Assembly (NCBI GenBank): GCA_040830765.1
Contig: JBFOMH010000013.1
Coordinates: 96,001 to 160,000 of the forward strand
DNA: 64,000 bases
Direction: 5' to 3'
Source: Puniceicoccaceae bacterium
GTDB taxonomy: Bacteria; Verrucomicrobiota; Verrucomicrobiia; Opitutales; Oceanipulchritudinaceae
The notes under the pieces: generated by a model
The model's database searches: none
Told to the model about the DNA's origin: nothing
Seen by the model: the letters and a program-made list of their open reading frames with translations, nothing else
Part shown: one piece after another, positions 1 through 29,158 of the stretch
Layout of the letters: every line of letters begins with the position of its first letter
Position numbering within the stretch: the first letter of the stretch is position 1
Position numbers and translations under genes: made by a program

Positions 1-1029
1 CTTCATGCTGTAACTGAAGACCCACGGCCAGTGTTCGTCGGCAATCCAGCCCATGCGGCCCATGTAGCCGTGCCCGGCCGGACCCCGGGCAACCGAATGC
101 CCCCACCATGAACCGATGGGAATGATGTCCATGGCTTTTTGTGCCAATACAGCATGAGTGGCAGTGGTTGGGTGGAAGCCATCCCAGGAAAGATATTCAT
201 TGGGATTGGGAACAAGGGTTCCTGCGGTTAGATCCAAGGCCGGCATCCAGACCTCCACGAGGCCATAAGATCCCGGATCGGCTAACAATCCGCCATAAAG
301 GGTCTCAATGTCGAGTCGCAGAATGGTCACCTTGTCGTAGGCGTTCTCAATCCGGTTCAAAGCCTGCTCAAGCCCGGCATTAAATCCATTGACCAGAAGC
401 TCCAGCTGGGCTTGGGCCTCCGGTGGCTGGGACAATCCGTACGGGGTCAGGTGCAATGGCGGCATGTTCATGACAAGGAACATCCGCGCGCCCAGTTCAT
501 GCAGGCCAACGATGCCACGGGCGATATTGGTCACGGAATTCTGAATATCCTCCCGCGTTACCGGCCGCTGCTCGGTTTCGATAATGCGGAGGAAATCATT
601 GGGGCCGAACCAGACCGTGAAAAGTTGCCATGGCATCGGTCCCGGAATCTCCTCATTGGCGACCGCATTTTGCCACATGCGGATCTGGGCCCAGAAATTG
701 GGTGTGTCCTGATCACTCAGGCCGGCTCCGGATTCAGCACCGCCAAAGGCAAAGTTTGTTCCTCCTGCAAGTGAAGGGCTGACATCGAAACCGTAGGCAC
801 CAGCCGCGATCTCAATCCAAACAAGGCCGTTGGAAGCGCGGTTGTTGTAATAGGGGAACGGGTAATTGGGTGGGAGTGTGGGATCATCCCGGCCTTCTGC
901 CCAAATGGCTGAATTGCCATTGGCCGAGAGACTGTCACCAAAGACAACAATGCTCTTAATGCCGGGTTTTGCCTGTACCCCCGCAACAATAAAGCAGCAT
1001 ACCGCTGCAAGGAGACATCTGTTAAACAT
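1..1029 (-). CDS. Secreted SGNH/GDSL lipase-esterase with C-terminal Trp-rich module (3' end runs off window)
   Basis: Not in ORF track (no stop in window). Hand translation from ATG 1029: MFNRCLLAAVCCFIVAGVQAKPGIKSIVVFGDSLS (signal peptide + GDSL), NFAFGGA (block II), WFGPNDF (block III), WDGFHPT (block V), then MGWIADEHWPWVFSYSMK; AAAGG upstream of ATG. Confidence 0.9.
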   Translation of the reverse strand, partial: MFNRCLLAAVCCFIVAGVQAKPGIKSIVVFGDSLSANGNSAIWAEGRDDPTLPPNYPFPYYNNRASNGLVWIEIAAGAYGFDVSPSLAGGTNFAFGGAESGAGLSDQDTPNFWAQIRMWQNAVANEEIPGPMPWQLFTVWFGPNDFLRIIETEQRPVTREDIQNSVTNIARGIVGLHELGARMFLVMNMPPLHLTPYGLSQPPEAQAQLELLVNGFNAGLEQALNRIENAYDKVTILRLDIETLYGGLLADPGSYGLVEVWMPALDLTAGTLVPNPNEYLSWDGFHPTTATHAVLAQKAMDIIPIGSWWGHSVARGPAGHGYMGRMGWIADEHWPWVFSYSMK

Positions 1030-1125
1030 AGTAGTACCTTTCTCTGGGGGATAGTACCCACTTGCAAGTGCAAGTCAACACAATCCAGATGGCCAGACTG
1101 GAGTCCTGTTCCGGAGTCCCGGCCG

Positions 1126-1878
1126 CTAAAACTGCACCTTGATACGCGCTTTGACAACAGTTGGCCGTCCATTACACCGTGGTGGCGCGAAGCGAAACTG
1201 CTCAACAGTCTGGTGGGCAGCATCCCTCAAAAACGGGTCATCTTCCTGATCAGAGCGGACGACCCTGGGGATCCCATCCTGATCAATATAAAATTCCACC
1301 TCCTGTTCGCCGGAGACGCGGTTTCCTGCCTCATCAATGAAGACGACCGGCTTCCCCTCGCTGATTAGCTTCAATGGTTCATCCAAGGCATGGCCTGGGG
1401 CCACCCGGAGACCGTACAGGCCGCCACTCATCCGGTTGAGCTTTATTTCAAGGTAAGTGGCCGGATCGAGATTGATAATTCCGTAGTAGCCAACCTCCCC
1501 CACCGGAACATCGACAACAATGTCAATCAGGACTGCTTCCCCATCCATCATTGCTGGTTGGAACCGAGCGGATTGGAAGGCGCGGTCAAGGGGCCGAATC
1601 AAATCGTAGTGCGGTAAGTCCAAGGCTACCCAGTCGATAACGGATCCTGACTCATCAATTCGTAAAATAACCGTTGCGGTGGCATCCGCATCAACCAAGT
1701 GGACAATGGTGTAGGGGATATTAATATGGAGGGGCCACAACAGCACGGGATCGATGATCTCGGGACCATCTGCGTTCCCGGCTGATGTGGCTGACTGCCC
1801 GCCTGTTGAAAGTATAAGGAAAATGAGCCCGGCAATCAGCAACCGGGCCAGACAGCGAAGACTGTTGCCCCTCCTCAT
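1126..1878 (-). CDS. TonB family protein with two TonB C-terminal-like domains
   Basis: N-terminal hydrophobic segment; two units of the type (IDESG/IDQDG)...(ARFQPAMMDGEAV / FRFAPPRCNGRPTVVK). Confidence 0.7.
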   Translation of the reverse strand: MRRGNSLRCLARLLIAGLIFLILSTGGQSATSAGNADGPEIIDPVLLWPLHINIPYTIVHLVDADATATVILRIDESGSVIDWVALDLPHYDLIRPLDRAFQSARFQPAMMDGEAVLIDIVVDVPVGEVGYYGIINLDPATYLEIKLNRMSGGLYGLRVAPGHALDEPLKLISEGKPVVFIDEAGNRVSGEQEVEFYIDQDGIPRVVRSDQEDDPFLRDAAHQTVEQFRFAPPRCNGRPTVVKARIKVQF

Positions 1879-1903
1879 TGGAACACCAGTAACTTATTGC
1901 AAA

Positions 1904-3040
1904 TCAGGCCTGGTGGCAACTGGAATCGGTGGAACTCACCGCGGCGGTGAAGGCAGCATCGTACCTTGGCGACAGGCGGGCCCAGTCATACCGGCCAACT
2001 GCCCCAGCCTGCTGGCATGGTTCCCGCCAGGCACCGGATTCAATCAGCGCGGAGATGCTGTCAACTGCCTCCTCCAGATGCTCGTAGAAGTACCGTTTGT
2101 CATCCAGATGCTCGGGATAAGCCAACCTTCGCGGAAGGACTGGATGATTACCGGTATATATAGCCTCCACCACACTACCGCCAAAGAAGTCCTGGATGCT
2201 GGTCACCGGCAGGATATCTGACCGCCAAAGCCAGCGGGCATAGTCGGCAAAGGCCTCCACGGGTCCATCATGGACAATAGCCGGGCCCAGTACCTTCCTT
2301 GTTTCGGCAAGGCCGGAAGGCTCCCCGGACCCGCGTTCGCCGAGGAGGGCCACTTCGAAAGTGAGACCACGCTGATGCAACTGCAGGAGAATCTGCAGGA
2401 AGGCTTCCGGACATTTGTCGAACTCCCAACGGTGGTTCCACAGGATCAGGGGAACGGCTTTGGTTTCCGGTCGCGAAGGGCGGTATTCGTCAAGGGCCCG
2501 GAGATCCAGTCCGAGCGGCAACACATCCGACTTCGCCACTATCTCGTCAACCGTTTCAAGGTTCACGGAGTCGGGATAACGTTTCAGGATTTCCGGCAGG
2601 GACGAGAGGAAACTGTCCTTGTGGTAGTGGGAATTAAAATACACCTTTTGTACGGCCAATGCACTGGTGTAATTGATCCAGCCGTAATGCAGGTCGCGGG
2701 ACTCCGTGACATCCGTATCCCGCGGGGAAACAGGATAGGAAATCTGGTTCTCGTGGAAATAGGCGACTACGGGAGTCCTGATTCCTGCCTGGCGTATCAA
2801 GGAAATAAATACAGCGACATCCATCATGTCACTGACGAGGAACAGGTCATACCGGGATCCCGAATGAATGACCTGCCGGGCCAGGGTCACCGCCGCCCCA
2901 TGCATCCTCCACTTCCAGTGACGAGCGGGCAGGGAAAGAATTTCGATATGGTGTTCAGAGTACTGTACCAGCCCGTCGGCCCAGCGTCGGTGGGATCCAC
3001 CGTACCAAGGCTCGAGCAACCCGATTTGCAACCCGCTCAT
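1904..3040 (-). CDS. GT-B glycosyltransferase, DUF3524/GTDC1-like
   Basis: YGGSHRRWADGL, WKWRMHG, YFHENQ, FNSHYH, ILWNHRWEFDK, LAYPE motifs; start overlaps upstream stop (ATGA). Confidence 0.85.
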   Translation of the reverse strand: MSGLQIGLLEPWYGGSHRRWADGLVQYSEHHIEILSLPARHWKWRMHGAAVTLARQVIHSGSRYDLFLVSDMMDVAVFISLIRQAGIRTPVVAYFHENQISYPVSPRDTDVTESRDLHYGWINYTSALAVQKVYFNSHYHKDSFLSSLPEILKRYPDSVNLETVDEIVAKSDVLPLGLDLRALDEYRPSRPETKAVPLILWNHRWEFDKCPEAFLQILLQLHQRGLTFEVALLGERGSGEPSGLAETRKVLGPAIVHDGPVEAFADYARWLWRSDILPVTSIQDFFGGSVVEAIYTGNHPVLPRRLAYPEHLDDKRYFYEHLEEAVDSISALIESGAWREPCQQAGAVGRYDWARLSPRYDAAFTAAVSSTDSSCHQA

Positions 3041-5211: not shown

Positions 5212-5269
5212 GACGGAAAAGGAATGCCGGCAGGCCTGTTTTGCAAGTTCCCTCAGCCAATCAGTACTA

Positions 5270-6424
5270 TCACCAGAGGTTGGTATGGGTAAGGATCAAT
5301 TCCACAGGATCGTTCAGAACCGGCTCCTCCTGCCGGCTGCGGATGAGACCCACGCCCGGGGCCAGCCACATTTCCGTCTCAAGGTCCTCAGAGGGACCCC
5401 CGAACGGATCCGGGGAGTGGACAGAGGCACGGATGACCACGACATCACTGTAGGACCTTCCCTGAAGAATATAGAGGGGGATCTTGTCGATCAATTCGTA
5501 GCGGATTGCCGGATAAAAGGGTGTAGAGAAATTCTGTCTATCCTCCAGAAAATCGTTCGCCCAAACCTCATAGGTGCCTGACACCCAGCCACCGGAGGCC
5601 CATTGCTCATAAACCGTCCCGACTGGGAGCTGATACAGGTCAGCCCGCCATGGAAGGTTGACCAGCAACTCACCGATGACATTGGTATTGGCCGATGCAT
5701 TAACGAGAAAGCTGTTCCCGACGACGCTGAATGCCAGGGACAGGTTTATTGAACTATCATCGAGATAAACACCCAGGTCATCACGCACAAATTGGCTGCT
5801 TTCCGCCCCGGTCAGGACGCCGACAATTGGATAGTAGAAACCATCGACTAAAACTCGTCCAGTGGCATCCGCCTCCATCGTTGAGTTCTGCAGCAGGTCC
5901 CTTCCTGAGAAACGGACAGAATACTTACTGAAGCTCAGGAACAATTCGACATCATCAACCTGGCCACCAACGGGATTACCGCCATTGACACTATAGTCCC
6001 AGGTGAAGACCTGCGATCCTTCCGGTACCGGAAAGTAACTGGCACTCGACGCAACCGCCGCATCGCTGACCCATTCCTCCGGAGCCCGGTCGAAAAACCA
6101 GCGGGGATTAACGGATCCCCTCGCATAATAGATCCATCCACGATTCTGTTCATAGATGTTGGGGTAGCTTTCCTTGCTCGTCCAGAGCCACCCTAGGCCG
6201 GGGCTCCACAACCAGAGACTCGAAGGGTTTTCATCACCACTGTAGAGCCAGCCATGGTCAAAATGGTAAACCCATGGATAAAATTGGTCGTTGAAGTAAT
6301 CGAACCATTCCAGGTAACGGTTGCCACCCCCTAAATCAACGGCGCCTTCAAAGGGGCTCGCCGGCAGAAGGCTACCACCCCAGGAAAGGGCTGATAGCAT
6401 TAACAATATCCTGCACGCTTTCAT
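5270..6424 (-). CDS. Secreted hypothetical protein with N-terminal Trp-rich module
   Basis: GAGGAG SD before ATG 6424 (MKACRILL signal peptide); WFDYFNDQFYPWVYHFDHGWLY...LGWLWTSKESYPNIY; C-terminal WLAPGVGLIR motif. Confidence 0.75.
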   Translation of the reverse strand: MKACRILLMLSALSWGGSLLPASPFEGAVDLGGGNRYLEWFDYFNDQFYPWVYHFDHGWLYSGDENPSSLWLWSPGLGWLWTSKESYPNIYEQNRGWIYYARGSVNPRWFFDRAPEEWVSDAAVASSASYFPVPEGSQVFTWDYSVNGGNPVGGQVDDVELFLSFSKYSVRFSGRDLLQNSTMEADATGRVLVDGFYYPIVGVLTGAESSQFVRDDLGVYLDDSSINLSLAFSVVGNSFLVNASANTNVIGELLVNLPWRADLYQLPVGTVYEQWASGGWVSGTYEVWANDFLEDRQNFSTPFYPAIRYELIDKIPLYILQGRSYSDVVVIRASVHSPDPFGGPSEDLETEMWLAPGVGLIRSRQEEPVLNDPVELILTHTNLW

Positions 6425-6515
6425 GAAAATCTCCTCCTCACGGAATAATAATATACGCCGCCTCGAATTTCCCGGCAACTCGAAAAAGGTTGGAGCTCCG
6501 CCTTCAGGCGGCCCT

Positions 6516-7064
6516 TCATCCCTCCCAATGGAGTCGCCGGACCCGGACCTGGACCTCGAATTTTTTCAGGAACCAGGGAGTAAAGGGCCCGTTCCAATAA
6601 ACCGCATAGGGCTTGCCGAGAACTTCGAGGTCACTCTCTGTCCGAACCCACCGCAGAAGCTGGGCCCGCGCCTTTTCAAAATTCCTTTTCGTGTAGGCCC
6701 CACGGCCCCCGATAGCCGCCACCATCCGCTCCTCAACCTCAATGACCCGGACCTTTTCAGTATCATTGGTGGCCTTGTCGACCTGGTCATCAGCCACCCA
6801 GAAATACATTGTACCGGGCTCGATCTTCGCCTCCACCGGAGTGGTCATGGAAATGTCGTGCTCCTTGATATACTGGAAGAGCGGCCCAAACAAGCTGTTC
6901 GCCTGGTCGAAATAGTTCCCTTCCCCGATGGACTCGAGGAGGCGGCCTTCCGGCAAGACCTTGACCTCGAATTCACCCGGTTCGGTACGCGGGAATGCCT
7001 GCTGATATGCATGAGCGTTCGACATGAGAAAGAGAATAATGGTGCTGAGAATAACCCGGCTCAT
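6516..7064 (-). CDS. SOUL heme-binding family protein
   Basis: FGPLFQYI, ISMTTPVE, YWNGPFTPWFLKKFEV; signal peptide; start at 7064 inferred. Confidence 0.85.
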   Translation of the reverse strand: MSRVILSTIILFLMSNAHAYQQAFPRTEPGEFEVKVLPEGRLLESIGEGNYFDQANSLFGPLFQYIKEHDISMTTPVEAKIEPGTMYFWVADDQVDKATNDTEKVRVIEVEERMVAAIGGRGAYTKRNFEKARAQLLRWVRTESDLEVLGKPYAVYWNGPFTPWFLKKFEVQVRVRRLHWEG

Positions 7065-7162
7065 GCGGCAAGCTAACCGTTCATTGAAAAATTGCAATCG
7101 GAAGTGCAGCCTTGTGAAATTTGCCTTGGGTCGCTTGGGAATTGCCGCTAAACCCCTAGGGC

Positions 7163-9272: not shown

Positions 9273-9947
9273 CTATCTCCCTGGCATCATGCCGCCCATG
9301 CCGGCTGGCATATTAAACTTCATGAAGCCCTCAGGGGGCTGAAACAGGGCTTCCGGCAGTTCCTTGGGTTCAATCCGCTGGACGGTCATGCGGAAGGACT
9401 CCTTCCCTTTTTCGTAGCCGATTGTCTCGAGCGGGAAAAAGGCCTTGAGCCCTGTCACCATGCGCATGGCCGCTCCCCATCCCTCAAGGATGGGGTTCTC
9501 GGAGTAAGGCATCGTCCCAAGGCCCTCGGTGGCCCAGATGACCATCTTCTCCGCGCCGTCCTCCATCAGGAACTCGTGAGCTTTGAAGCCGAGGATAGTC
9601 CGCGTCTCGCCGGTCCGCTTGAAGGGAAAGTCCTCCTCCAGTTCCTCCTCGTCCGGCGCCGGGACACTGATTCCCTCCGGAATCTCCATTTCCATGTACA
9701 TCCGCTGTGAGGGCACGATCATGATCATCGTCGAAGTCCCGTTGCGGAAAATCATCTCGCCGGACTCCTGTCCCTTACCGGAGATCTTCATCCGCATATT
9801 GCCAGTCTTGACCCAGAAGGTGCAATTGACGACCTCCCCGTCTCCCTGCAGTTGCATGTCGTACTCACCCTCGAAGGCCTTGCCCGACAAGAGCGGAGCA
9901 GCCATCAGGAACAAAAGTATTACTCCCGTTAAGATTGTCTTGTGCAT
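9273..9947 (-). CDS. DUF4412-like secreted protein
   Basis: Signal peptide then AFEGEYDM; FKRTGETRTILGFKAHEF, IWATEGLG, LFQPPEGF. Confidence 0.75.
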   Translation of the reverse strand: MHKTILTGVILLFLMAAPLLSGKAFEGEYDMQLQGDGEVVNCTFWVKTGNMRMKISGKGQESGEMIFRNGTSTMIMIVPSQRMYMEMEIPEGISVPAPDEEELEEDFPFKRTGETRTILGFKAHEFLMEDGAEKMVIWATEGLGTMPYSENPILEGWGAAMRMVTGLKAFFPLETIGYEKGKESFRMTVQRIEPKELPEALFQPPEGFMKFNMPAGMGGMMPGR

Positions 9948-10020
9948 GGGCGGAACTGTACCGATTCCCCGGCCCCCGGCAATGCCTATTGTTAACCACA
10001 AAGAGAGAAAACATATCCCT

Positions 10021-10604: not shown

Positions 10605-13600
10605 TCAGACCCCGGATTCGTGGAGGTATTCTCCGGAGCTCAAGGAAAAGTACCAGCGGTTCGGCGTGGTCGTCGTCTCGAAGTAGTAGTACCACGTTCC
10701 TTGCCCACCCTCAAACCGGTAGACATAGGGCCAATAAGCCGGTGCGCTCCAGAACCACTCGCCAAGGGCATAGTCGAAGTAGAAGAAGGAATCCGGACTC
10801 GCCCCTTCCGGGATGTAGATGTTGTGCATGTTGAGGTGGAAGACGACCGGGAACTTGTCCTGGTTCATCCAGCCCAGCCACTTCGACTCGATCCAGCCGT
10901 CCTCGAAGACCGAGGCATCCGGCCAGAGTGACCCGCCGTAGGCATTGAGAAGGGCCCAGCCGGTATTGTTGTCCTCGTGGATTTCCGCGACGAGATTCTC
11001 CTCATCGATCACGGCATAGATACGTGCGTTTGGATTAATGATCCAAGGCACCGTCCAGTCCGTAAGAATCATGACAAAGGATTCCCGCGGAGCCATGCCG
11101 GGGATAGTCAGGACCGATTGCCCTTCCCCACCGACCATCGGGATAGGCGGGCGTCCGTCCTTGTTGTCGAGATAGAACCGGAGGCTGGCTGGTGACGATC
11201 CGCCCGGGTCGAGGGAGTAGTTATGGATACGGGCCATGACGTCGACCTTGTCACCGGCACGCGGCTTGGAAGGATTGACGAGGATGTTCCGCGTCCGCTG
11301 CACCTGATCCTGAGGGATGTTTGAACCCCGCTCGATGTCGTAGCGCCAGGGAAGCGTGAAGGCGAGGTCCGGCTGATGGGCATATTTCTGCTGCCACCAG
11401 CCCTCGTAGCCATCGCCGAGAACCGGGTCCACGGCATAGTCGAGGACAAGGGCCCCATTGGTTCCCCAGTAAAGGTATGGCGTGACCTCGTAAGTGGTGT
11501 CCCCAAGAATCCCGACATCGACGTTGCCGAAGTTGACCAGGACCGTGTGGTCCACGGAGACGGTTGTCTTGTGCGTACTGACCGTGGACCGGGAATAGTC
11601 CCCCTGGATGTAGCCACCCACGGTGACCCCCAGCGAGCCGGTGACAAACTTGGCAATCGGCAGTTCCACGGAAGCCTCCCGCTCGACCTCAACGCGCGCA
11701 CTGATGCTCATGTTGGTCGTCCGGGTCAGCTGGTTCTGCTGGTATTGTGACAGTTCCAGTGTCCAGGAAGAGGTTCCCTGGCCCTGCATTTCCCAGCTGA
11801 ATCCGGTGAAGGACGTCACCGGACTGGCGACCAGCGGGTTGTCGATCATCTCCACCGACGGGCGATAGGAGAGGATGTTGCCCGGTTCATGCGGCGTGAC
11901 ATACTCGGCCGCCCGCGGGCTCTTGGAGTTGAAGGTCACCAGCTTGGGGCGCTTCGGAACCACCGAGGCGATCGTCCCGAGAAACTCCCCGGCCCGGTAG
12001 ACCGGATATTCGAGGATATCGTAATCGGCCACCGAGGCGTAGATGAGATCATCCCCCCGGGCAACAAACTCCCGCGTTTCCCGGATCGTCGTGCCCGAGT
12101 TGCGGACCCTCGAGAAGCCTTGCCCGTATTTGCCGTCGAGGCTGGCCTTGACCCGTTGCTTGGCCTTGCCGATGGGAGTGCTGATACCGCCCTCCACTTC
12201 AACCGAGACGCCCGCCGAAATGGCCCAGTCCGCCCGGACCTCCGTCGAGACCTCCTGGATCAGTTCGTTCTGCAGGGTGTAGGAAGCATAGGTACCGCAG
12301 TCGCCGGAAAGGCAGCCGTTCACGTCGAAGACTTCTCCATTGAGAATATCGAAGTGCGTCGGGGGGGCATTGAGAATCATAACCGGATGGCCCAGCTCCG
12401 TCCGGCGGTAAATGGTGGGACGACCGAGACGGAGTGAATCAGCATCAATGTCCCCGGTAACCATGGCCACACAGGGGGGATCGTTGCTGCCGATTGAATA
12501 CATTTGAAAGTCACCGACGCTGACGATGTAGCTGCCGCCGGAGAGCTGTGCCGTGACGGAAACAACTTCCCCCTCCAGGTCAGCCTCGGTATCGGAGTTC
12601 AGGTCCGTGACAGAAACCCCGGAAGCAACCTGGATGTACTCGTTGTCACCATTCGTCGACGTAAAGCCAATCGAGCTCGGCTTGCCATCGATGTAAGAGC
12701 CATTGAGGTAGCGGGTCAGGGCACGGGCACCGCGTTTGCCCATCCAGCCCAGATCGTCGATGTTGTCGTAATTGTAGTCACCGGTATCGAGGGTCAGCGG
12801 ATACAGGTTGTTACCCAAGGTTGTTTCCATGATGAAAGGGAGGGATTGCGTGGCAACCAGGCCGTTCATCTCCGGATTCATGATGTAGTAACCGAGTTCA
12901 AAATAATTGGTCGCGCCCCCGGACCTGGATCCGATGGAACAGCCCATGGCAATCTCCTCGAGGCCGTCATTATTGAAGTCTCCTGCAGCCACTCCGAGAG
13001 CAAAGACCTGGTCGAAGGTCCGGCTGGTGGCATCCCAGTCCGGCTCCTCGATCTCGAAGCGGTAGGTGATAGATGTCTCGGCCTCCGGGTCAAAGTCATA
13101 GACCCGCGCAAAAACTTTCCGGTAGACTCCCGATGCCTTGGTCAAGTCCTGCCAGACATAGGCAAGGATGATTTCATCCCCATAATCTGTATCGAGGCTG
13201 CCGGCAGCGATGTCAAAACGGGCACTGTCACTCGCTGCCGAAACATCCAGGTCCGTATCGCTGACCATGCTGACGTCAGCAATGGAGCCAAGGACAACCA
13301 GGTCGCCTGACTTGCTGATTTCCGCAGCGATCAGTTGCACTTCACCCTCCCCGGCCCAGTAGCCAAGGATGAACTCAGAGGCCAGGTCCTTGTCCAGCTG
13401 GGCTGGAATTACCCGCATCAGGGAAACCGTCCGGGTGGACTTTTCCTCATAGAGCAGAGGAAATCCCAAGTCGCTCAGCATGTAGCGTTCTCCTGCGGTA
13501 AACTGACCTGTATTGGGATTGTAGCGGGGGCGCTGCAGGATCGGCTCCCGGTCCTCACCCTCAAAAAACACCAGCATGTCGTCGTGCATGTCCTTGTCCA

Positions 13601-13922
13601 GGTCCAGCATCGCCAGATCAACCACCGGGCTCTCGCGCTCAACGACCGAGCCAACGGGAATTTTCGCCCCGGGAAGGGATAAGCTGCCCAGCAGGGGATA
13701 ATCGTCCCCGTTGGGATCGTCATCAAGCAGCCGGAGCTCGATCATGCCGGAGGTCGCGTCGGCGACAGCGACGAGGATCTCGTTGGATGGGGCCAGGCGG
13801 TAGTTATCCGCAAACGGGTCCTCATCATTGAACTGTGCCAGGCACGCCGTTGTTCCTACCAGCAAGGGCGCGAACAGGCGTGACAAGCGTCGGGTCAGTG
13901 GGTTATTGCTTATATGTTCCAT
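10605..13922 (-). CDS. Large secreted protein: FG-GAP/VCBS-like repeats, two beta-hairpin regions, CARDB domain, C-terminal Trp-rich module
   Basis: About 7 DxD/NxD repeats (AAGDFNNDGLEEIAMG, AAGSLDTDYGDEIILAY...), YAVIDEENLVAEIHEDNN (CARDB-like), WLGWMNQDKFPVVF...YWPYVY tail. Confidence 0.8.
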   Translation of the reverse strand: MEHISNNPLTRRLSRLFAPLLVGTTACLAQFNDEDPFADNYRLAPSNEILVAVADATSGMIELRLLDDDPNGDDYPLLGSLSLPGAKIPVGSVVERESPVVDLAMLDLDKDMHDDMLVFFEGEDREPILQRPRYNPNTGQFTAGERYMLSDLGFPLLYEEKSTRTVSLMRVIPAQLDKDLASEFILGYWAGEGEVQLIAAEISKSGDLVVLGSIADVSMVSDTDLDVSAASDSARFDIAAGSLDTDYGDEIILAYVWQDLTKASGVYRKVFARVYDFDPEAETSITYRFEIEEPDWDATSRTFDQVFALGVAAGDFNNDGLEEIAMGCSIGSRSGGATNYFELGYYIMNPEMNGLVATQSLPFIMETTLGNNLYPLTLDTGDYNYDNIDDLGWMGKRGARALTRYLNGSYIDGKPSSIGFTSTNGDNEYIQVASGVSVTDLNSDTEADLEGEVVSVTAQLSGGSYIVSVGDFQMYSIGSNDPPCVAMVTGDIDADSLRLGRPTIYRRTELGHPVMILNAPPTHFDILNGEVFDVNGCLSGDCGTYASYTLQNELIQEVSTEVRADWAISAGVSVEVEGGISTPIGKAKQRVKASLDGKYGQGFSRVRNSGTTIRETREFVARGDDLIYASVADYDILEYPVYRAGEFLGTIASVVPKRPKLVTFNSKSPRAAEYVTPHEPGNILSYRPSVEMIDNPLVASPVTSFTGFSWEMQGQGTSSWTLELSQYQQNQLTRTTNMSISARVEVEREASVELPIAKFVTGSLGVTVGGYIQGDYSRSTVSTHKTTVSVDHTVLVNFGNVDVGILGDTTYEVTPYLYWGTNGALVLDYAVDPVLGDGYEGWWQQKYAHQPDLAFTLPWRYDIERGSNIPQDQVQRTRNILVNPSKPRAGDKVDVMARIHNYSLDPGGSSPASLRFYLDNKDGRPPIPMVGGEGQSVLTIPGMAPRESFVMILTDWTVPWIINPNARIYAVIDEENLVAEIHEDNNTGWALLNAYGGSLWPDASVFEDGWIESKWLGWMNQDKFPVVFHLNMHNIYIPEGASPDSFFYFDYALGEWFWSAPAYWPYVYRFEGGQGTWYYYFETTTTPNRWYFSLSSGEYLHESGV

Positions 13923-18840: not shown

Positions 18841-18841
18841 G

Positions 18842-18890: not shown

Positions 18891-20468
18891 TCACCGGCAG
18901 GTACTCCTGAAAAAGACCGGATTGCCGGATACCGTTTGAATGAATGGACTGAAGGGCTGAGGGATGACATCGGTCCATGTCTCCAAGTCGTCACTCCTTT
19001 GCAACCAACCTTCAAACTCGATGTGAACCTGGTTCGCCTCCCCCCGGGAGATGGCGTGACTGGCCTCTAGATTGGGCTGCATTCGCCGGATGATGCCATC
19101 CTGCTTGTTGATAAGATAAATCCGTCCGGGTGTGTTAACACTGAAACGCAGATCCGCACGACTGGTGGTTGAGAGGGAACGCGCGGTTCGCGCCGAATTG
19201 ATGACATCAAGCATGCGCATGGCAGAACCGCCTCCCTCACGGACAAGAACTTCAACAAAGCCATCCTGGCCCCCAACCAAAGGGTCGCTATCGAGGTCGA
19301 GAAGAAAAATAATCCCGGTTGGAAAGTCGGCCGTTAGGAGATTGCCATCCAACCCATCAATGCAGGTGCCCCGGGCCACTTCTCCAATCGTGATCGCCCG
19401 GTTGCTGATAGACGGTTGCGGATCCGTGACAAAATCGACATGTCCATACTCCGCAACGGGATCCGTCAGTCCGGTTGTTGTTCCACCTTCAAGCTCCTGG
19501 CTTCCTTCCCGCACATCCCAACCGTAGTTGGCCCCGTTGGATGCCAGGTTAATTTCCTCGAGCGCATCGTGCCCGATATCAGCAATAAACAAATAACCGG
19601 TGGCGACGTCCCAACCGAACCGCTGCGGATTTCGCAATCCATAGCAAAAAATCTCCGCCAGCGTTCCTGAATCGCCATCGGAGGCAAAAAGATTCTCCGG
19701 GACAATCCCGTATTCTCCGTTGGCACTGTTGCTCCCGAGGGGATTGATCCTGAGGATCGCCCCGTAGGGATTGGCGGGATTCTCGGCGTTCTCGAGCGGG
19801 TCAGCCTCCCCGCCCCCCTGTGCTCCGTCCCCTAGGGCAATGTAAAGATTTCCACGATCGGGATGCCCGGAGGATACACTGCAGTTGAACGCAATCAATC
19901 CTCCAACGTGTCCCCCGAGAGGCTGGTTGATACGCAGTACCTCACGATAGGGATTGGCCAGGTTAGCGGCAACGAAGGTCAGGTCCGCGGGACTATCCGT
20001 CCGCCACTCAAGGAGCAGGGTATGGAAACTGGTCCCCTCTCCAGAGGTAAAATCAGGATCAGGCTCCGTGGCGTTTGAACTGAAGAGGGTATAGAAACGG
20101 CCAAAGCCGGGTTTGCCGGATTTATGAAAGTCTGGATGGAAGGCAAAACTTTGCAAACCATGGAATCCGGCATTGAGGTCGAGCTCGGGATAGTCCCTCA
20201 GGTCGAGATACTCGGTAACACTGCCGCTGTCCTCATCGACGTGAAACAGTGGCCCCCGCAGGTCATTAACAAAAAGGCGACCCATTGGATCCTCCGTCAT
20301 CACCGTACACCGCGGAACCACTCCCGGAGTCGAGTCGGGAACAACAGCGATCTCACTGACCTCCATGACCAATGAGGATAACGGCACCGGCAATGGATAG
20401 ACGTCCGTCGAGGCCCCTGTGTTGAATGCACCCAACAAGCCAGTCAGGAGGAACACGTATCGCTGCAT
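18891..20468 (-). CDS. PQQ-dependent sugar dehydrogenase (GSDH family), secreted, with C-terminal extension
   Basis: GLQSFAFHPDF, LYIALGDG, GAILRINP, YGLRNPQRFGWD, DIGHDALEEIN, NYGW; tail LQRSDDLETWTDV..FFR. Confidence 0.88.
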   Translation of the reverse strand: MQRYVFLLTGLLGAFNTGASTDVYPLPVPLSSLVMEVSEIAVVPDSTPGVVPRCTVMTEDPMGRLFVNDLRGPLFHVDEDSGSVTEYLDLRDYPELDLNAGFHGLQSFAFHPDFHKSGKPGFGRFYTLFSSNATEPDPDFTSGEGTSFHTLLLEWRTDSPADLTFVAANLANPYREVLRINQPLGGHVGGLIAFNCSVSSGHPDRGNLYIALGDGAQGGGEADPLENAENPANPYGAILRINPLGSNSANGEYGIVPENLFASDGDSGTLAEIFCYGLRNPQRFGWDVATGYLFIADIGHDALEEINLASNGANYGWDVREGSQELEGGTTTGLTDPVAEYGHVDFVTDPQPSISNRAITIGEVARGTCIDGLDGNLLTADFPTGIIFLLDLDSDPLVGGQDGFVEVLVREGGGSAMRMLDVINSARTARSLSTTSRADLRFSVNTPGRIYLINKQDGIIRRMQPNLEASHAISRGEANQVHIEFEGWLQRSDDLETWTDVIPQPFSPFIQTVSGNPVFFRSTCR

Positions 20469-20778: not shown

Positions 20779-20784
20779 CTTCGG

Positions 20785-21132
20785 CTAGCTGCGGGCCCGG
20801 CTGAGCATGAACTGGTTGCCATCGGTGTCTTCACACATTGCCAGATGCGGCGGTTCGCCGTTTTCCGGCTGCGGTTCGCGCTCACACTTGCCGCCGGCAG
20901 CCCTGACCTCGGCTGCCCCGGCAACTACGTCAGCCACCTGGAAGGTCAGTCCGGTCCATGTCTGTTTGCCTTCCCCGCCCCCGTGGATGGCAATGAGTCC
21001 GCCTGCGACCGCCAGTTCGGTAATGTGGGGATTCTGCCGCTCTACCGTGGCCCCGAAAACGGACTGGTAAAACGCTGCCGCCCGGCCGGCATCCGCGGCC
21101 CAGATGGTGTACTTGAGTTTTTCAACCTGCAT
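20785..21132 (-). CDS. VOC/glyoxalase family protein
   Basis: AAAFYQSVFG, LTFQVADV, EDTDGNQFML. Confidence 0.85.
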   Translation of the reverse strand: MQVEKLKYTIWAADAGRAAAFYQSVFGATVERQNPHITELAVAGGLIAIHGGGEGKQTWTGLTFQVADVVAGAAEVRAAGGKCEREPQPENGEPPHLAMCEDTDGNQFMLSRARS

Positions 21133-21147
21133 GGCTCTACCTGGCAG

Positions 21148-22224: not shown

Positions 22225-22349
22225 TCCGCATAATCAAAAATGCAGGAGCAGCAGGCAATGGAAAATGCATATCCCGATTCCCCCTTGGCAAAAATCCCGG
22301 GACGGTTCACGATGTGGAGAACAACAAGAATACAACGGGGGCAGGAAGC

Positions 22350-23570: not shown

Positions 23571-23617
23571 GGAGGCATTAAGTCCAGGTTGCCATAGTCT
23601 TTGGAAGGGCAATTCGA

Positions 23618-23646
23618 TTGACCTTGATATTCCAATTGGCTACAAT
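23618..23646 (+). promoter_or_regulatory. Sigma70-type promoter
   Basis: TTGACC-N17-TACAAT, 9 nt before ATG 23656. Confidence 0.7.
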
Positions 23647-23655
23647 CCGAGCATC

Positions 23656-24522
23656 ATGAAATGGAGCATTATGGGGATATGCTCCCTTATGTTGGTGGGC
23701 TTGACGGGATGCGACGTCGATTCCGATTCGAGCACGTCGTCACAACCACGGCAACGCGCGCCAGTGGCGAAGTTCAAGCAGGTGCATCCGATCGAGGAAA
23801 CAGCCAACGGTGTGGAAGTACCGTTAAGCCAAAAAAGGGAAATAATTTCATTTATTGAAGCTGGTATTGCGCAAGCAAAGGCCAAAGGAACTGACGATCT
23901 GGCCCAGCGGGAACGGATCCTGCGGGATGCAGCAAGGCGATTCGGGATCGACCAGGAAACCGTGGAAACAATCCACAGCCAGATGTCCGCGGTTGAAACC
24001 GACCCGGGGAAGTCCGGGACTGGAGGTGTTTACGAGGAGTCGGTGGCCTCCGACATGCTATTGGCCGAGCAAGGGGACGCTGCTGCCCAGTATCGCCTGG
24101 GGATGCGCTACATGGTTGGCGAAGGTTTGCCCCAGGACTTTGCCATGGCGGCGCAGTGGCTCAACCTGGCCGCTGAACAGGGGCATGTGGAGGCAGCCTA
24201 CCGGCTTGGCCTGTGTTACAAGGATGGTCTTGGCGTCAGTCTGGATCCCTTGGTGGCCCTTCACTGGTGGCGCTACGCGGCCGAGCAATACCACGTAGAC
24301 GCGCAGGATGAATTGGCCAATGCTTACTTTGTCGGATTCGGGGCAAGGCGCGATGTGGTCACCGCCGGGATGTGGTCGATCATCGCCACTACCTTGGAAC
24401 CGGACAATCCCGCCTGCCGGATGACCCGTCAGGCCATTGCCAACGAGCTGACTTATCTCGAAGAGGAGCAGGCCAGGGAACGGGCCAGCATGTGGCTTTC
24501 ATCCGTGCCGCCGGGTGGTTAG
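23656..24522 (+). CDS. Sel1-repeat lipoprotein
   Basis: LTGC lipobox; AEQGDAAAQYRLG..YMVGEGLPQD, AAEQGHVEAAYRLG..GLGV repeats. Confidence 0.88.
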   Translation: MKWSIMGICSLMLVGLTGCDVDSDSSTSSQPRQRAPVAKFKQVHPIEETANGVEVPLSQKREIISFIEAGIAQAKAKGTDDLAQRERILRDAARRFGIDQETVETIHSQMSAVETDPGKSGTGGVYEESVASDMLLAEQGDAAAQYRLGMRYMVGEGLPQDFAMAAQWLNLAAEQGHVEAAYRLGLCYKDGLGVSLDPLVALHWWRYAAEQYHVDAQDELANAYFVGFGARRDVVTAGMWSIIATTLEPDNPACRMTRQAIANELTYLEEEQARERASMWLSSVPPGG

Positions 24523-24548
24523 CACTCCCGAACAGGAGGGGAAGGGCT

Positions 24549-25304
24549 TTAATCCGAAGGCAGTTCCTTGACCCGCATTCCGCGAAAGAGGATGGTCCCC
24601 TGCTTTCCGGAATGAGATTGGAGGGCGAAGAATCCTGAAGGGAACTCATCGAGTATCACCTTTCCGGCAGGAATGCCGTTGATCCAGGTCATCAGCAAAT
24701 CGCCCCTGGCATAAATCGTGACCCGGTTCCAATTATCATAATCCACGGCCTCGCGAACAGCCTTGTGCGCATCCAGCCAGAGGGGATACCAGTAGCCCCC
24801 ACAGCTCTGGCCGTAAATGCCGCCCGACCAGCCGCGGATGCGGGATTCCTCCTCCATCTCAAATTGAGGACCGTAGACCACCTCCTTGCCATCCTCCGTG
24901 CGGACGCCTGAACGAAACTGGATACCGGTATTGGCGTCGACAACATACTTCACTTCGCAGGTGAAGATAAAGTCGGTGTAATCGTCCTTCACAGTTGTCA
25001 GGTAAGTACTGGGGGAGCCGGGAACACAAATTGCCTGGATCCATTCCCCCTTGGCCTCAAACAAATGCTCGCCGCCGCGGACCACCCAACCGTCAAGGTT
25101 CCGGCCGTTGTACAATTCGACAAAGCCGGTTTCCAGATCAGCCGGTTCAGGCGCCGTGTTGAGGAGCATCTCCTCCGGATCCGGCGCATTCGCCTGTTTG
25201 CTGTACCTCGGATACCAGTCCTTCATCTGGTCCTCCGAAACCGTGTTTATCCCCCAACCGGTCAGCGCTCCCAGCAGGAACAAGGCAAGTGTCATGGTCT
25301 TCAT
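24549..25304 (-). CDS. DUF1080 (3-keto-disaccharide hydrolase family) protein
   Basis: LYNGRNLDGW, ANTGIQFRS, SGGIYG, WNRVTI, GFFALQSH, FRGMRVKEL; start at 25304 inferred. Confidence 0.9.
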   Translation of the reverse strand: MKTMTLALFLLGALTGWGINTVSEDQMKDWYPRYSKQANAPDPEEMLLNTAPEPADLETGFVELYNGRNLDGWVVRGGEHLFEAKGEWIQAICVPGSPSTYLTTVKDDYTDFIFTCEVKYVVDANTGIQFRSGVRTEDGKEVVYGPQFEMEEESRIRGWSGGIYGQSCGGYWYPLWLDAHKAVREAVDYDNWNRVTIYARGDLLMTWINGIPAGKVILDEFPSGFFALQSHSGKQGTILFRGMRVKELPSD

Positions 25305-25649
25305 GGAACCAACGATTACGACTTCCTCGGCAAATGGCAAGGGGTCAACCCTTGGAATTTGGCCTTCCGGTCGAACCCAGAAAGGAGAAGGACTCGTCCG
25401 CGATATCCAGTGATGCCTTGGGTGCGTTGTGCGGCTTGCCGCTACGGCAGGGCTAGACGAAGCATGGGCCTGTTGCTGGTGCTATGCGTCGGGGTTAATC
25501 CGTATGGATTAGACGCGGATCCATTAAGTTGATGTATTAGCACTGCTATTCTGCGTAATTAGGATTGCTAAACCGGGACTTCGTCGTTTAATCAGGCATT
25601 CCCCGGATCAAATATAATGGCCATCAACGACAAAGGGAGAAGAACAAGG

Positions 25650-26933
25650 ATGCAAAAAGCGAAAGTGACAATTTGTGGACTGGCATGGGGAATCCTGCTT
25701 GGGGCAACGCCTGTCAATGCCAACTACCTGCAAGGGCTGGGCACTCTTGCCAATGCGCCAGTCCGATTCACTGAAGCAACGGCTATTTCGGCAGATGGCT
25801 CTGTGGTTGTGGGGAAGACCGTTCAAGCTGATGGGTCGGAATTCGGGAGCGAAATTGCCTACTGGTGGAAGAACGGCGTGGGCATGCACAGCCTCGGTGA
25901 AATTCCCCAGGATCTAAAAACATTTAACGCCACCGCGGTTTCGGGAGATGGCACAATCGTTGCCGGAATCAGCGTTACCGGAGACGTCTTTTTAGCGCGG
26001 GTGGATGTGAACGGGATGGTAACCGACGGAAATTCCGTCACCGGGATGCGCTTTGCCGGGGCCATATCTGCAGATGGAAAAACAATTGTTGGCGCCAGCG
26101 GATCATTTCCCACGACAGCGGAAACGCGCATCATTCGCAACCTCGATGCGGCAAATCCACTAACCGCGGTACCGATTGTCGTAGAGGAATTAAATGACCA
26201 GAATGAATTGGTTAATGTGAATGTCCAAGGCGTTGCAACAGCCACCAACAGTGACGGCTCAGTTATTGTTGGATACCGGGGTAGCGAGGCCTTCCGTATT
26301 GAGAACAATACTGAGGTGACGATTGAGAAGGACTCCACAGACCAAGGCCTTGGCCCTGTCGGGGTCAGTGACGACGGATTGATTGTTGCCGGGACGCGGT
26401 CAACGTCGGAATTCCTGAGCATGCCTTTCGTGTGGAAGAAAGGTGAGCTCAATATACGGGAATTGTCCACCGGTGCATACACCCAGGTCGTTGCAAGGGG
26501 CCTTTCCGGTGATGGAAAAACCATTCTCGGCGAAGGTCGGGATGCCTTTTCCCGGAAACGCGCCCTGCTGTGGCTGGATGATGATGGGGACGGGAATTAC
26601 GCAGGTCCGGGAGAAGTCCTTTTCACTGGGACAAACACGTCAGGGAATTTCCAGATTCAAACAGTTGCCGGCCTGAGTGCCGATGGAAAATTCGCTGCCG
26701 GCTGGGGTACCGAATCCGGGGCCCGGGTTGCCTTCCGCATCGTTTTTGATGCCACAATATGGGCCCGTTACCTGGCCCATTCAGATGGAGTGAACGTAGA
26801 TACGGGCGATTTTCTTGGCTGGATAAACATCAGTTCCCCACCATGGGTTTATGTGTATAGCCTGGATAACTACGTCTATCTGCCGGAGGAATTTGTCCAG
26901 GACAGCGGCGCCTGGGTCTGGATCGGGCCCTGA
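25650..26933 (+). CDS. Secreted HAF-type repeat (propeller) protein with C-terminal Trp-rich module
   Basis: Signal peptide; repeated A(I/V)S(A/G)DG(S/K/T)(V/I)VG; tail DTGDFLGWINISSPPWVYVYSL. Confidence 0.82.
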   Translation: MQKAKVTICGLAWGILLGATPVNANYLQGLGTLANAPVRFTEATAISADGSVVVGKTVQADGSEFGSEIAYWWKNGVGMHSLGEIPQDLKTFNATAVSGDGTIVAGISVTGDVFLARVDVNGMVTDGNSVTGMRFAGAISADGKTIVGASGSFPTTAETRIIRNLDAANPLTAVPIVVEELNDQNELVNVNVQGVATATNSDGSVIVGYRGSEAFRIENNTEVTIEKDSTDQGLGPVGVSDDGLIVAGTRSTSEFLSMPFVWKKGELNIRELSTGAYTQVVARGLSGDGKTILGEGRDAFSRKRALLWLDDDGDGNYAGPGEVLFTGTNTSGNFQIQTVAGLSADGKFAAGWGTESGARVAFRIVFDATIWARYLAHSDGVNVDTGDFLGWINISSPPWVYVYSLDNYVYLPEEFVQDSGAWVWIGP

Positions 26934-26937
26934 GCCC

Positions 26938-27744
26938 CTACTCCACCAGGCGCATCGTCTGGAGGTTCTTTTCCCGGATCTCATCTGCCCGGGCAATGAG
27001 GTCGTCGAGGTCATGGGCCGAGGCGTGGATATAGCGCCCGGACAACTTGTCCGCCTTGCCCGAGGCCAGGGCGAGGCAAAGCTCGGCTGACTTCTCGATG
27101 GGCGTCCATTCCGCCTTGGCGACGAACTCATCCGGTATTTCGCGGGTCATCTCGGTCTTGACCAGTCCGGGGCTGATGGTGAAGACGGATATTCCCTGCT
27201 CATGGAGGGCCTCGGCCAGGTTATCCCCCAGCCGGATAAGGGCCGCCTTGCTGCAACCATAGGCCGATTTCATTGGGAAGGGCCAAAAGGCCATATTGCT
27301 TCCGACCATGATGATGCGGCCGGTCTTTCGCTTGATCATCCCAGGTATGACCGCCTTGGCACAAAGGTAAGGTCCGCGGAGGTTGACTTCAAAGGTCTGC
27401 CACCAATCTGCCGATTCAACCTCCCAGGGCATCCCGTCAGGACCTGACGTGCCCGCGTTGTTAACCAGCAGGTCGACATGTCCATAGGTGGACTCTATGG
27501 TCGCGAAGGTGGCCTTGATGGCAGCTTCGTCACTGACGTCGAGGGCCATGCTGCTGCACCGGCCGCCGGTTGCTCGAATTAACTGGCAAGTTTCCTCCAA
27601 CTGGGCGACTGTCCGCGCAGTCACGACCACGCGTGCCCCGGCAGCCGCCAGCTGACGGGCCACCTCTCGCCCAATTCCCCGGCCGCCGCCGGTAACCACG
27701 GCCACCTGGCCACTCAACAAGTTGTTACCCATGTTCTCAGTCAT
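26938..27744 (-). CDS. Short-chain dehydrogenase/reductase
   Basis: TGGGRGIG, NNAG, YGCSK (YxxxK), ISPGLVKT. Confidence 0.93.
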   Translation of the reverse strand: MTENMGNNLLSGQVAVVTGGGRGIGREVARQLAAAGARVVVTARTVAQLEETCQLIRATGGRCSSMALDVSDEAAIKATFATIESTYGHVDLLVNNAGTSGPDGMPWEVESADWWQTFEVNLRGPYLCAKAVIPGMIKRKTGRIIMVGSNMAFWPFPMKSAYGCSKAALIRLGDNLAEALHEQGISVFTISPGLVKTEMTREIPDEFVAKAEWTPIEKSAELCLALASGKADKLSGRYIHASAHDLDDLIARADEIREKNLQTMRLVE

Positions 27745-27817
27745 GGCTGCAGTTTACAGGTTCTGGCACAAGGTACCAGCACTTTGCATGACGAATTGCT
27801 GTGACAGGAGAGGTCTC

Positions 27818-29158
27818 TTATTGACCAAGCCACATCCAACTGCCGGATTCGGTCACGAATTCCTCCGGCAGATAGGCATAGCTGCCCAGGGCATAGATAT
27901 AAACCCACGGTGGACTGCTGGTATCGATCCAGCCCAGGAATCCACCCGTATCGACACTAACACCATCCTGGGCAATATCCCAGATGCCGGCCCACTGATT
28001 GGAACCTTTCAAGGTTATCCCGCTGAAAACCTGTACCGGGGTGGTGACTTCATCCGGGGCACTAACGCCCAATTGGTCAAAGAAATTGGAGCCACAGGCC
28101 CAGACGGTCCCGTCATTCTTGAGGATGAGAGTGTAATAGGGACCCGCTTCCATCGCTGCGACATCGCTGAGTAACTGGAATGGGGTGGCCTTGTCATCGT
28201 TTGTGCCATCGCCTAATGCGCCCCAGATATTGCTGCCAACAGCCCACAAGGCGCCGTTACTTTTCAGGAAAAGGCTGTGCCCGAATCCCGCATCAATAGC
28301 GATAATGTCTGTCATCCCCGGCACGGGCTGGAGAGCACCGGAACTCGAAAACTCCCCATTGCCCAGCTGGCCGGTATTGTTGCGGCCGACTGCGCTGACC
28401 GTTCCATCATTCATGAGGAACAAACTGTGGTAACCGCCTGCGGAAATCGCTTTGACTCCTGTCTGGGTAATCGTCGCAATGGACCGGTCAGTGTTGGTTC
28501 CATCACCCAATTGGCCAAACGTATTGAAGCCTGCGGCCCAGGCATTGCCATCCTTGTCCAGGAAGAGCGCGTGTGCCTGCCCCACTGAAACCGTCTCGAT
28601 ATTACTGATCCCCTGAACCTGGACCGGGCTGGACTTGTCCTCCGTCGTCCCGTCTCCCAGCTGGCCGGTGCTGTTGCCTCCTGTGGCCCAGACAGTCCCG
28701 TCCTCCATGATAAAATAGCTGCTGGCATCGTAGGCGGCAATGGCCTTGACCCCGGTCAGTCCGGACACTGGAACGGGCGTGATGCGAAATTCCAGCGTCC
28801 CGTCGCCGAGTTGGCCACTAAAGTTGTCACCGGTCCCAACAACTGTCTTGTCATCCTTCAGGAAGAGGCTGTAGGCATTTCCGGAAGCAACCATGGTGAT
28901 TCCACTGAGGTGGTCCAATTTGGTATACACGGAGGCTGGTGTCTGGGACCCGTTGCCAAACTCATAATTGGTGTTGGAACCGGTTCCCCAGACCGACCCG
29001 TCATCCTTGAGAATAAGGCTGGTAAAGTATCCAGTAGAAAAATACACCCCGTTGGGGACTTTCCCAATGGCCGCTTCCGCAAGCGGGCCACTGGCAAGAA
29101 AAGGAAGCAGCAGGCAGGTAAACGTAAACGCTCGTTTCAAGCGGGTCGTGGAGAACAT
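27818..29158 (-). CDS. Secreted RCC1-repeat protein with C-terminal Trp-rich module
   Basis: Seven repeats of HSLFL..DGTVWA.G.N..GQLGDGT; tail DTGGFLGWIDTSSPPWVYIYAL. Confidence 0.9.
   Translation of the reverse strand: MFSTTRLKRAFTFTCLLLPFLASGPLAEAAIGKVPNGVYFSTGYFTSLILKDDGSVWGTGSNTNYEFGNGSQTPASVYTKLDHLSGITMVASGNAYSLFLKDDKTVVGTGDNFSGQLGDGTLEFRITPVPVSGLTGVKAIAAYDASSYFIMEDGTVWATGGNSTGQLGDGTTEDKSSPVQVQGISNIETVSVGQAHALFLDKDGNAWAAGFNTFGQLGDGTNTDRSIATITQTGVKAISAGGYHSLFLMNDGTVSAVGRNNTGQLGNGEFSSSGALQPVPGMTDIIAIDAGFGHSLFLKSNGALWAVGSNIWGALGDGTNDDKATPFQLLSDVAAMEAGPYYTLILKNDGTVWACGSNFFDQLGVSAPDEVTTPVQVFSGITLKGSNQWAGIWDIAQDGVSVDTGGFLGWIDTSSPPWVYIYALGSYAYLPEEFVTESGSWMWLGQ

Follow-up and report, generated by a model that had tools for sequence, protein, structure and literature searches.

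SLH and CWB2 domains are helical anchors by which proteins are held non-covalently on the cell's own glycan. Non-covalent glycan anchoring is also reported for the N-terminal domain of RsaA (PMC6978808), and a DUF4214 protein of Pseudomonas putida, whose DUF4214 domain is termed "helix-rich", was reported to bind O-antigen (10.64898/2026.09.02.748959, available part). Choline-binding modules (CW_binding_1, PF01473), such as that of pneumococcal LytA, are found C- or N-terminally, and LytA dimerises via its terminal hairpin, as stated in the accessible portion of PMC4929436. PEP-CTERM tails are considered to act in protein sorting and in localisation to the surface (PMC4960237, available part), and tail exchange occurs among sorting signals (PMC3237569, available part). 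In Verrucomicrobiota, which are major degraders of complex polysaccharides, the placement of exported enzymes and adhesins is poorly known. Here, we describe a Trp/Tyr-rich module shared by five exported proteins encoded in a 64,000-nucleotide stretch of a Puniceicoccaceae genome (the window, G000:C13:96001-160000; G000 is the label of the source genome, 3.99 Mb and 97% complete). The module defines a genuine and sizeable domain family that has no name and whose predicted fold finds no match; it is probably a variant of the non-covalent anchoring modules.

An initial annotation of the window claimed five Trp-rich segments on five unrelated secreted proteins. All of them are present at corrected coordinates (Table 1), and their carriers are unrelated and rightly named, as judged by Pfam and NCBIfam. 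The proposed W...GW...PW motif fits only roughly, as PW is missing from the FG-GAP copy and GW from the 5270 copy; the module is, as stated, free of a transmembrane (TM) helix or basic tail. The GDSL copy is the most divergent of the five, with E 0.004 to the long profile built from the genome and 1e-4 to profile A3; its module and stop codon run 150 nt past the window edge (G000:C13:95848-96000), and this continuation makes it a long-type form of about 90 amino acids (aa), not a short one.

The module offers no conserved words suited to pattern scans of contig collections, and profiles were iterated over the 31,150 six-frame open reading frames (ORFs) of G000. The short form was found in 55 ORFs (61 copies) and the long form in 41, with a union of 93; the long profile was still growing at that point and later gave 43 ORFs. 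With the GDSL copy, there are 94 module ORFs, and a Trp/Tyr window scan adds 7 divergent candidates, giving about 100 against a background of 2,749 genes (crude caller). In the 31,150 reversed ORFs none of the three profiles found a match at E<1e-4, compared with 41-55 in the forward ones, so the module does not arise by chance. Signal peptides, called by a permissive heuristic in called genes of at least 200 aa, are predicted for 79/87 carriers and 793/2122 other genes, while a lipobox occurs in 1/79 carriers and 54/793 non-carriers with signal peptides. The many-to-one relation between module and exported proteins proposed earlier is therefore supported, and the suggested check with hidden Markov models led to a large set of mostly signal-peptide proteins. 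The module ends within 10 aa of the C-terminus in 78/94 cases and is followed by a tail of up to 45 aa in 8/94; it is N-terminal in 6/94 and internal in 2/94. Among the top 150 database matches outside G000, 19 modules are N-terminal and 9 internal. Eighty of these 150 proteins were scanned for cargo, and they bear LTD, CotH, BspA-LRR, cadherin/Ig, FG-GAP, Kelch, RCC1, FGE-like, S8, CAP, endonuclease I, and cyclophilin domains; trypsin protease, redoxin, cytochrome c, and DUF3179 domains occur on other carriers. LTD, CotH, BspA-LRR, cadherin/Ig, S8, trypsin, FGE-like, and cyclophilin cargo is typical of surface or extracellular proteins. Adhesins and proteins of 2000-3000 aa are among the carriers, many carriers resemble polysaccharide-active enzymes, and a G000 membrane protein with about five TM segments ends in a partial copy. 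A GT-C identity considered for the membrane protein C1:61525 was a resemblance only and was dropped, as no Pfam match at E<=0.5 and no homologue were obtained. The module marks about 3% of the genes called in G000, and its profile is a predictor of exported, probably surface-held proteins.

Both forms, the short of about 60 aa and the long of about 105 aa, are made from one unit of about 40 aa. They are real and homologous, as the initial annotation held (hhalign probability 75% over the whole length, 89% for the short form against the first half of the long, with one closing strand added in the short); the internal duplication of the long form, a repeat of a two-hairpin unit of about 40 aa, is only moderately supported (61% and 70%). 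Trp, Tyr, and Phe account for 21-25% of the module compared with 9% genome-wide, and the module is acidic (D+E 11%, K+R 2.5-4%). AlphaFold, supplied with 22-row alignments, predicts both forms as all-β with a predicted local distance difference test score (pLDDT) of 94 for the short and 92 for the long; the fold is read from the secondary structure of these models. The claim that the module belongs to no characterised family was borne out: there was no credible match in Pfam (22 short and 22 long copies), NCBIfam, PDB sequences, Foldseek against the PDB with either model, the VIA fold search of 48,161 chains (best Z 2.9 short, 3.3 long), or a viral fold search. A Kelch-design match among PDB sequences was only a sum of 3-bit pieces, and the ESM Atlas returned solely unnamed Verrucomicrobiota clusters. 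These blank library searches do not by themselves make the fold new. No published description was found, judged by titles and abstract openings with subscription journals mostly uncovered, and the parts seen of PMC13274419, on the proteome of a relative, do not mention a C-terminal domain.

Comparison with the described systems places the module nearest to choline-binding modules. Both consist of aromatic β-hairpin repeats with a period near 20 aa, and both would tie unrelated exported proteins down without a covalent bond, in most cases from the C-terminus and at times from the N-terminus; the dimerisation of LytA via a terminal hairpin resembles the pairing modelled for the short form. However, 0/22 long and 0/22 short copies match PF01473 at E<=1, the module alternates two hairpin types within the 40-aa unit, and its host is diderm. 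The fold-search rows, with best Z values of 2.9 and 3.3, listed no choline-binding chain (β,β-3-solenoid). The lic route to phosphocholine was dropped as a candidate, as neither LicD (PF04991) nor choline kinase (PF01633) was found in the 97% complete genome, while the controls were detected. By analogy, the module would thus work most like a choline-binding module, of which it is not a member. With SLH, CWB2, the RsaA N-terminal domain, and DUF4214 it shares the proposed mode, the non-covalent anchoring of many proteins to self glycan, but the SLH, CWB2, and DUF4214 domains are helical while the module is all-β, no profile of theirs matches, and no linked glycan locus is seen in G000. The C-terminal domain of the type IX secretion system (T9SS) of Bacteroidota (Por_Secre_tail, PF18962) is also a folded all-β domain on similar cargo. 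It differs in that Por_Secre_tail and TIGR04183 find no match in the module (Pfam and NCBIfam), the module is free in position (8/94 N-terminal or internal here, 28/150 elsewhere), and its short-hairpin meander, judged on secondary structure, is not an Ig-like sandwich. SprA (PF14349) was not found in G000, nor in the control genomes. The OCRE domain of RBM5/RBM10, a twisted aromatic β-meander, is present in both fold lists (Z 2.5, root-mean-square deviation 3.6, 51 residues aligned; Z 2.8, 3.1, 53 aligned); it is a eukaryotic splicing domain, its Z does not rise above background and equals that of unrelated rows, and it is taken as a lead only.

A further comparison is with PEP-CTERM (PF07589, TIGR02595; exosortase PF09721). 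Both are many-to-one suffixes on signal-peptide proteins, and they swap on the same bodies. On contig C34, a PEP-CTERM-type protein shares 59-65% identity over 250-254 aa with three short-module proteins encoded nearby, and on C12 such a protein is 57% identical over 215 aa to its short-module neighbour; in both cases the junction of likeness sits at the tag. The C12 protein passes the PF07589 cut-off (26 bits) and the C34 protein just misses it (18.9 vs 20.7). The module itself lacks a PEP motif, a TM helix, and a basic cluster at the C-terminus (alignments A1 and A2) and has no PF07589 match, and it is a folded domain of 60-105 aa that also occurs N-terminally, internally, and in tandem. The two systems coexist in G000, whose three exosortases (PF09721, over cut-off) are explained by its own PEP-CTERM proteins, of which a pattern finds 23 candidate ORFs. 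By their defining features, the module is not PEP-CTERM, T9SS C-terminal domain, or SLH. Exchange within G000 is not limited to PEP-CTERM: twelve body pairs exchange the short for the long module (two paralogues of the RCC1 body in the window bear the long one), and fifteen exchange the module for a second C-terminal tail ending in FxR. The tail swaps with PEP-CTERM, together with surface cargo, free position, and the aromatic and acidic composition, support the reading that the module is an envelope anchor. We favour, with roughly even confidence, an uncleaved aromatic all-β domain that acts as a pair and tethers exported proteins non-covalently to the envelope of the cell itself, likely via a glycan; it is proposed to do the job that PEP-CTERM processing does on sister proteins. 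The non-covalent envelope binding suggested in the initial annotation is accordingly the reading preferred here, at about an even chance.

The FxR-type tail is seen in the window on two exported proteins, 18891-20468 (-) and 30533-32695 (-), where no Pfam match covers it. Its profile finds 14 ORFs in G000 and a looser pattern finds more; the tail and the Trp-rich module were not found together on one protein.

Genome surveys were samples with a loose first filter (37 genomes of the family, 251 of the order, 201 phylum-wide, and 201 for another class), and a miss means not found in the genomes searched. The long form is present in 36/37 family genomes, including 27/27 of the near-complete ones, and, with a broader profile, in 75/251 genomes of the order. 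Its occurrence is all-or-none in most families: f1 14/14, f67 14/14, f66 7/7, and f61 10/11 on one side, f4, f7, f49, f50, and f54, each 0/14, on the other. The short form occurs in 33/37 family genomes and in 2/201 phylum-wide, both within the family. The long form is also found in 5/201 genomes of another class, and a whole-library search gave 4,923 clusters at 50% identity (E<=0.001). The module had been called lineage-specific, which holds for the short form and does not hold for the long one. One of the other-class genomes, G531, carries 24 module copies, located among housekeeping genes in 14 regions, with a mean identity of 63%, compared with 32% (long) and 37% (short) between copies in G000; for these reasons contamination is unlikely there, though it may be the source in G080, G442, and G550. 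The pattern in G531 would fit one acquisition followed by spread onto 24 proteins, while the direction and number of transfers into that class are inferred.

Such spread bears on another explanation, in which an export machine of the outer membrane (type II secretion or a T9SS-like system) recognises the folded module as a secretion signal, with the cargo released or otherwise anchored. The prevalence of extreme C-terminal copies, the near absence of lipoproteins, and the overlap of the cargo with that of T9SS substrates speak for it, as do the three secretins and the type II secretion-like operon of G000 (recognised by gene starts) and the fifteen swaps with the FxR tail. It does not account easily for N-terminal and internal copies, tandem pairs, or the membrane protein with a partial copy, and if a single transferred copy could serve 24 proteins, then no order-specific machine is needed unless it was co-transferred; none was seen in the loci read. 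Enzymes lacking a visible signal peptide are a further difficulty. Six of 10 homologues obtained for a G442 protein are fusions of about 500 aa that combine an Stf0-sulfotransferase, an Ig-like domain, and, at the end, a full long module (E 1e-16 to 1e-28); inspection by eye reveals no signal peptide on them. In locus L303 the fusion gene lies amid two PMT_2 membrane proteins, which are membrane glycosyltransferases, and two methyltransferases; in G442 it adjoins a TylF methyltransferase. Such sulfotransferases need cytoplasmic PAPS (3'-phosphoadenosine 5'-phosphosulfate), and the module on them therefore appears to read better as glycan binding, which speaks against secretion as its sole role. 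The secretion recognition named in the initial annotation is weakened by these fusions and by the N-terminal and internal placement, and we consider it unlikely.

If the module binds glycan, then the glycan might instead come from outside. A carbohydrate-binding module for algal or particle polysaccharides, keeping released proteins on the food particle, would be in line with an aromatic, acidic, all-β domain at either end of carriers that often resemble polysaccharide-active enzymes. However, the module is also carried by proteases, cyclophilins, cytochromes, LRR and RCC1 proteins, and the sulfotransferases without visible signal peptide, matches no carbohydrate-binding module by sequence or fold, and takes the place of PEP-CTERM, which directs proteins to the surface of the cell itself; this explanation is very unlikely. 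Trp/Tyr-rich hairpins generally suit membrane interfaces, and redoxin, cyclophilin, and DUF3179 carriers are compatible with retention in the periplasm through binding to peptidoglycan or to the membrane interface. Adhesins and cargo of 2000-3000 aa do not agree with such a location, no LysM, SPOR, or other peptidoglycan-binding match was found, and the sulfotransferase fusions would stay unexplained, which leaves this idea barely credible.

The envelope-anchor reading includes pairing, which was modelled for the short form. Two copies are modelled as a symmetric homodimer with an ipSAE of 0.73, compared with 0.00 for the best of three controls; the runs agree in 100% of contacts with pLDDT of at least 92. 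The mark was reached by 20/30 solved pairs and 1/23 single chains, and up to 19/100 single chains may reach it. The predicted interface comprises residues 19-24, 36, 38-39, 41, and 53-61, with the terminal strands at its centre, and Trp56 of the terminal Gly-x-Trp-x-Tyr strand lies at the two-fold axis and is invariant in 61/61 copies. The long form already has a hairpin partner for the equivalent strand (strands 52-57 and 61-66). From the secondary structure of these models, the short form would be a domain with one strand missing, supplied by a second copy. Tandem arrays consist of two copies in 6/6 cases in G000 and 23/23 in other family genomes (many windows 1-3 kb), and nine G000 proteins have a short module plus a half copy. 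In G000, non-terminal short modules have a same-chain partner in 4/4 cases, terminal ones in 11/51 (p=0.004). If the pairing is true, then the module is a compact dimerisation tag.

Pairing could also be the whole function. A protein-coupling tag, whose main job is to form homo- or heterodimers or a surface coat with other copies and no separate ligand, would agree with the dimer model and its discrimination of pairs from single chains, with the invariant Trp and the strictly two-copy arrays. It requires no partner gene, which fits the failed profiling described below and the easy spread after transfer. In contrast, the long form and the tandems would have no need of a second chain, and it is the long form that is widespread; the strongly conserved W5, W25, W33, Y35, W/Y42, and Y44 fall outside the modelled interface; and the rate at which single chains may pass the dimer test has to be considered. 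We regard coupling alone as decidedly improbable.

In the favoured mechanism, the signal peptide (called heuristically) would export the carrier from the cytoplasm, and surface cargo would cross the outer membrane, probably via a type II secretion-like system. The module would then fold into Trp/Tyr-lined hairpin units of about 40 aa. The working unit is modelled as a pair: long, tandem, and one-and-a-half short forms would hold both halves in one chain, while single short modules would pair with a second chain via the terminal strand. The aromatic grooves would bind a neutral or cationic component of the cell's own envelope, most likely a surface glycan. Should it bind self glycan, the module would be an anchor of new fold and a tool for probing an uncharacterised polymer of the envelope. 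A bolder version seems doubtful to us. In it, the short form would be a split version, completed in trans, of a new universal anchor fold of this Verrucomicrobiota branch, and about 40 different exported enzymes, lectins, and adhesins of one cell would pair combinatorially via the common terminal strand and attach to the glycan on its surface; if correct, surface complexes of two differing proteins could form without a scaffold, and a single domain would carry this ability between classes. The localisation question is testable with a domain of 60-105 aa, which is expected to express well.

Several observations weigh against the favoured reading. Redoxin, cyclophilin, and cytochrome c cargo could be periplasmic, and the Stf0 fusions could have arisen by shuffling and serve no function. 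Taken as a whole, the dimer interface shows no significantly higher conservation than the remaining residues (p=0.10). In other genomes (96 ORFs picked from search matches), non-terminal short modules were found 6 times with and 5 times without a same-chain partner, so lone internal copies exist; terminal ones were found 23 times with and 62 times without (p=0.083), and the own-partner rule is replicated weakly. In G000, 1/94 module genes lies near glycosyltransferase, wzm, or wzt genes, compared with 216/2749 of all genes, and a general linkage to glycan loci was rejected there. None of the four glycan genes tested tracks the module, and none of five candidate partner genes is co-distributed with it. 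A GT4-GT2 glycosyltransferase (G000:C4:180249) is present in only 20/37 family genomes, and its orthologue is missing from the carriers G442, G531, G538, G550, and G281. The wzm gene occurs in 100/201 genomes and in 14/15 of the module-negative f4; the glycosyltransferase GT4 C4:228181 is present in 12/14 genomes of f4 and 0/14 of the module-positive f67. GT4 C4:232845 gave partial matches in only 3/5 carriers. Finally, an OEP-MFP-MacB-type operon, which adjoins the sole module gene of family f61, has a 53% orthologue in the module-negative G060 and <=30% matches in four transfer recipients. The dedicated system expected in the initial annotation was thus not recovered, as no partner gene was found and the profiling of candidates for a cognate partner failed.

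Adjacency to glycan genes is seen in certain genomes. Module genes in G080 and G033 adjoin glycosyltransferases and wzm/wzt; such adjacency amounts to 3/3 windows (two contigs) in G080, 2/3 in G538, and 1/1 in G033, and elsewhere to 2/14 in G531, 0/4 in G442, and 0/19 in the remainder. The GT4-GT2 gene is full-length in only G000 and G080 of 201 genomes and is flanked by module genes in the latter. This suggests that the whole glycan locus was transferred. In G000, C4:175254-182480 and C4:223736-237239 hold a wzm/wzt glycan locus, a sulfotransferase, and two GT4-GT2 fusion genes; the full-length orthologues of the fusion outside the family, found only in G080 of 201, lie near module genes in L091-L092 (G080:C45).

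Table 1. Coordinates of module copies, carriers, and other features; positions without a prefix refer to the window.
Position	Strand	Feature	Remark
1..120	-	Divergent long-type module, first 40 residues, C-terminus of GDSL esterase	
1..1029	-	GDSL esterase, signal peptide, carrier	Whole protein 393 aa; PF00657 above cut-off
5270..6424	-	Exported protein, family without name, N-terminal module	
6056..6373	-	Long module directly after signal peptide	AlphaFold pLDDT 92, 11 short strands
10605..13922	-	1105-aa exported carrier	Weak FG-GAP and CARDB matches, both below cut-off
10611..10943	-	Long module, extreme C-terminus of FG-GAP/CARDB protein	
25617..26933	+	HAF-repeat exported carrier	Start may be 25650; TIGR02913 above cut-off
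26748..26930	+	Short module, extreme C-terminus of HAF protein	AlphaFold pLDDT 94; modelled homodimer via last strand
27818..29179	-	RCC1-repeat exported carrier	
27821..28009	-	Short module, extreme C-terminus of RCC1 protein	59% identical to HAF copy
1126-1878	-	Protein with two TonB_C matches	Neighbour between module genes
6516-7097	-	SOUL protein	Neighbour between module genes
9273-10001	-	DUF4412 protein	Neighbour between module genes
23656-24522	+	Sel1-repeat protein	Neighbour between module genes
24549-25340	-	3-keto-disaccharide hydrolase	Neighbour between module genes
L244:1774-2916; L244:4903-6030; L248:10974-12110; L252:3842-4966; L091:6683-8911		Distinct N-terminal Trp-rich module	
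G000:C4:40905-45337; L280:11074-15614; L343; L344		OEP/MacB operon	
L105:13145-14356 (G000:C20:81145-82440); L092:5244-6362		Membrane-anchored protein with Pro-rich linker	

The genes between the module genes of the window are ordinary ones and give no sign of a dedicated transporter. An exported M6-family metalloprotease with Fn3 repeats, 32809-36138 (-), is without the module. Elsewhere in G000, an exosortase gene lies two genes from secretin and pilus-assembly-like genes (G000:C9:103619-110693), and two short ORFs, C21:23917-24336 and C5:68295-68504, consist nearly entirely of module without a signal peptide and may be remnants or frameshifted genes. The operon of OEP, membrane-fusion, MacB/FtsX permease, and ATPase genes is conserved, and it is located beside wzm/wzt in f4 and beside a module protein of about 2000 aa in f61. 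In an f61 protein of about 2100 aa, the module follows a weak DUF4214 match, which is below threshold in the two orthologues scanned; given the O-antigen-binding DUF4214 protein, this counts in favour of the envelope-anchor reading. Within a huge PA14/SpvB/FG-GAP/RHS protein (L286:1-9852, G373:C22), the module occupies residues ~1120-1230. A distinct, repeated Trp-rich N-terminal module occurs on FGE-like and papain-like proteins of the other-class genomes G531, G538, and G080, often near module genes, and shows a weak likeness to the long form (hhalign 62%). FGE-sulfatase-like domains can be targets of diversity-generating retroelements, and several such proteins (C-type lectin fold) adjoin or bear the module in L244 (G531:C41), L261, and L093:15-1835. 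A membrane-anchored protein, possibly a chaperone, has a Pro-rich linker and matches nothing in Pfam; in G000 as well as in G080, its gene neighbours encode exported module proteins of large size.

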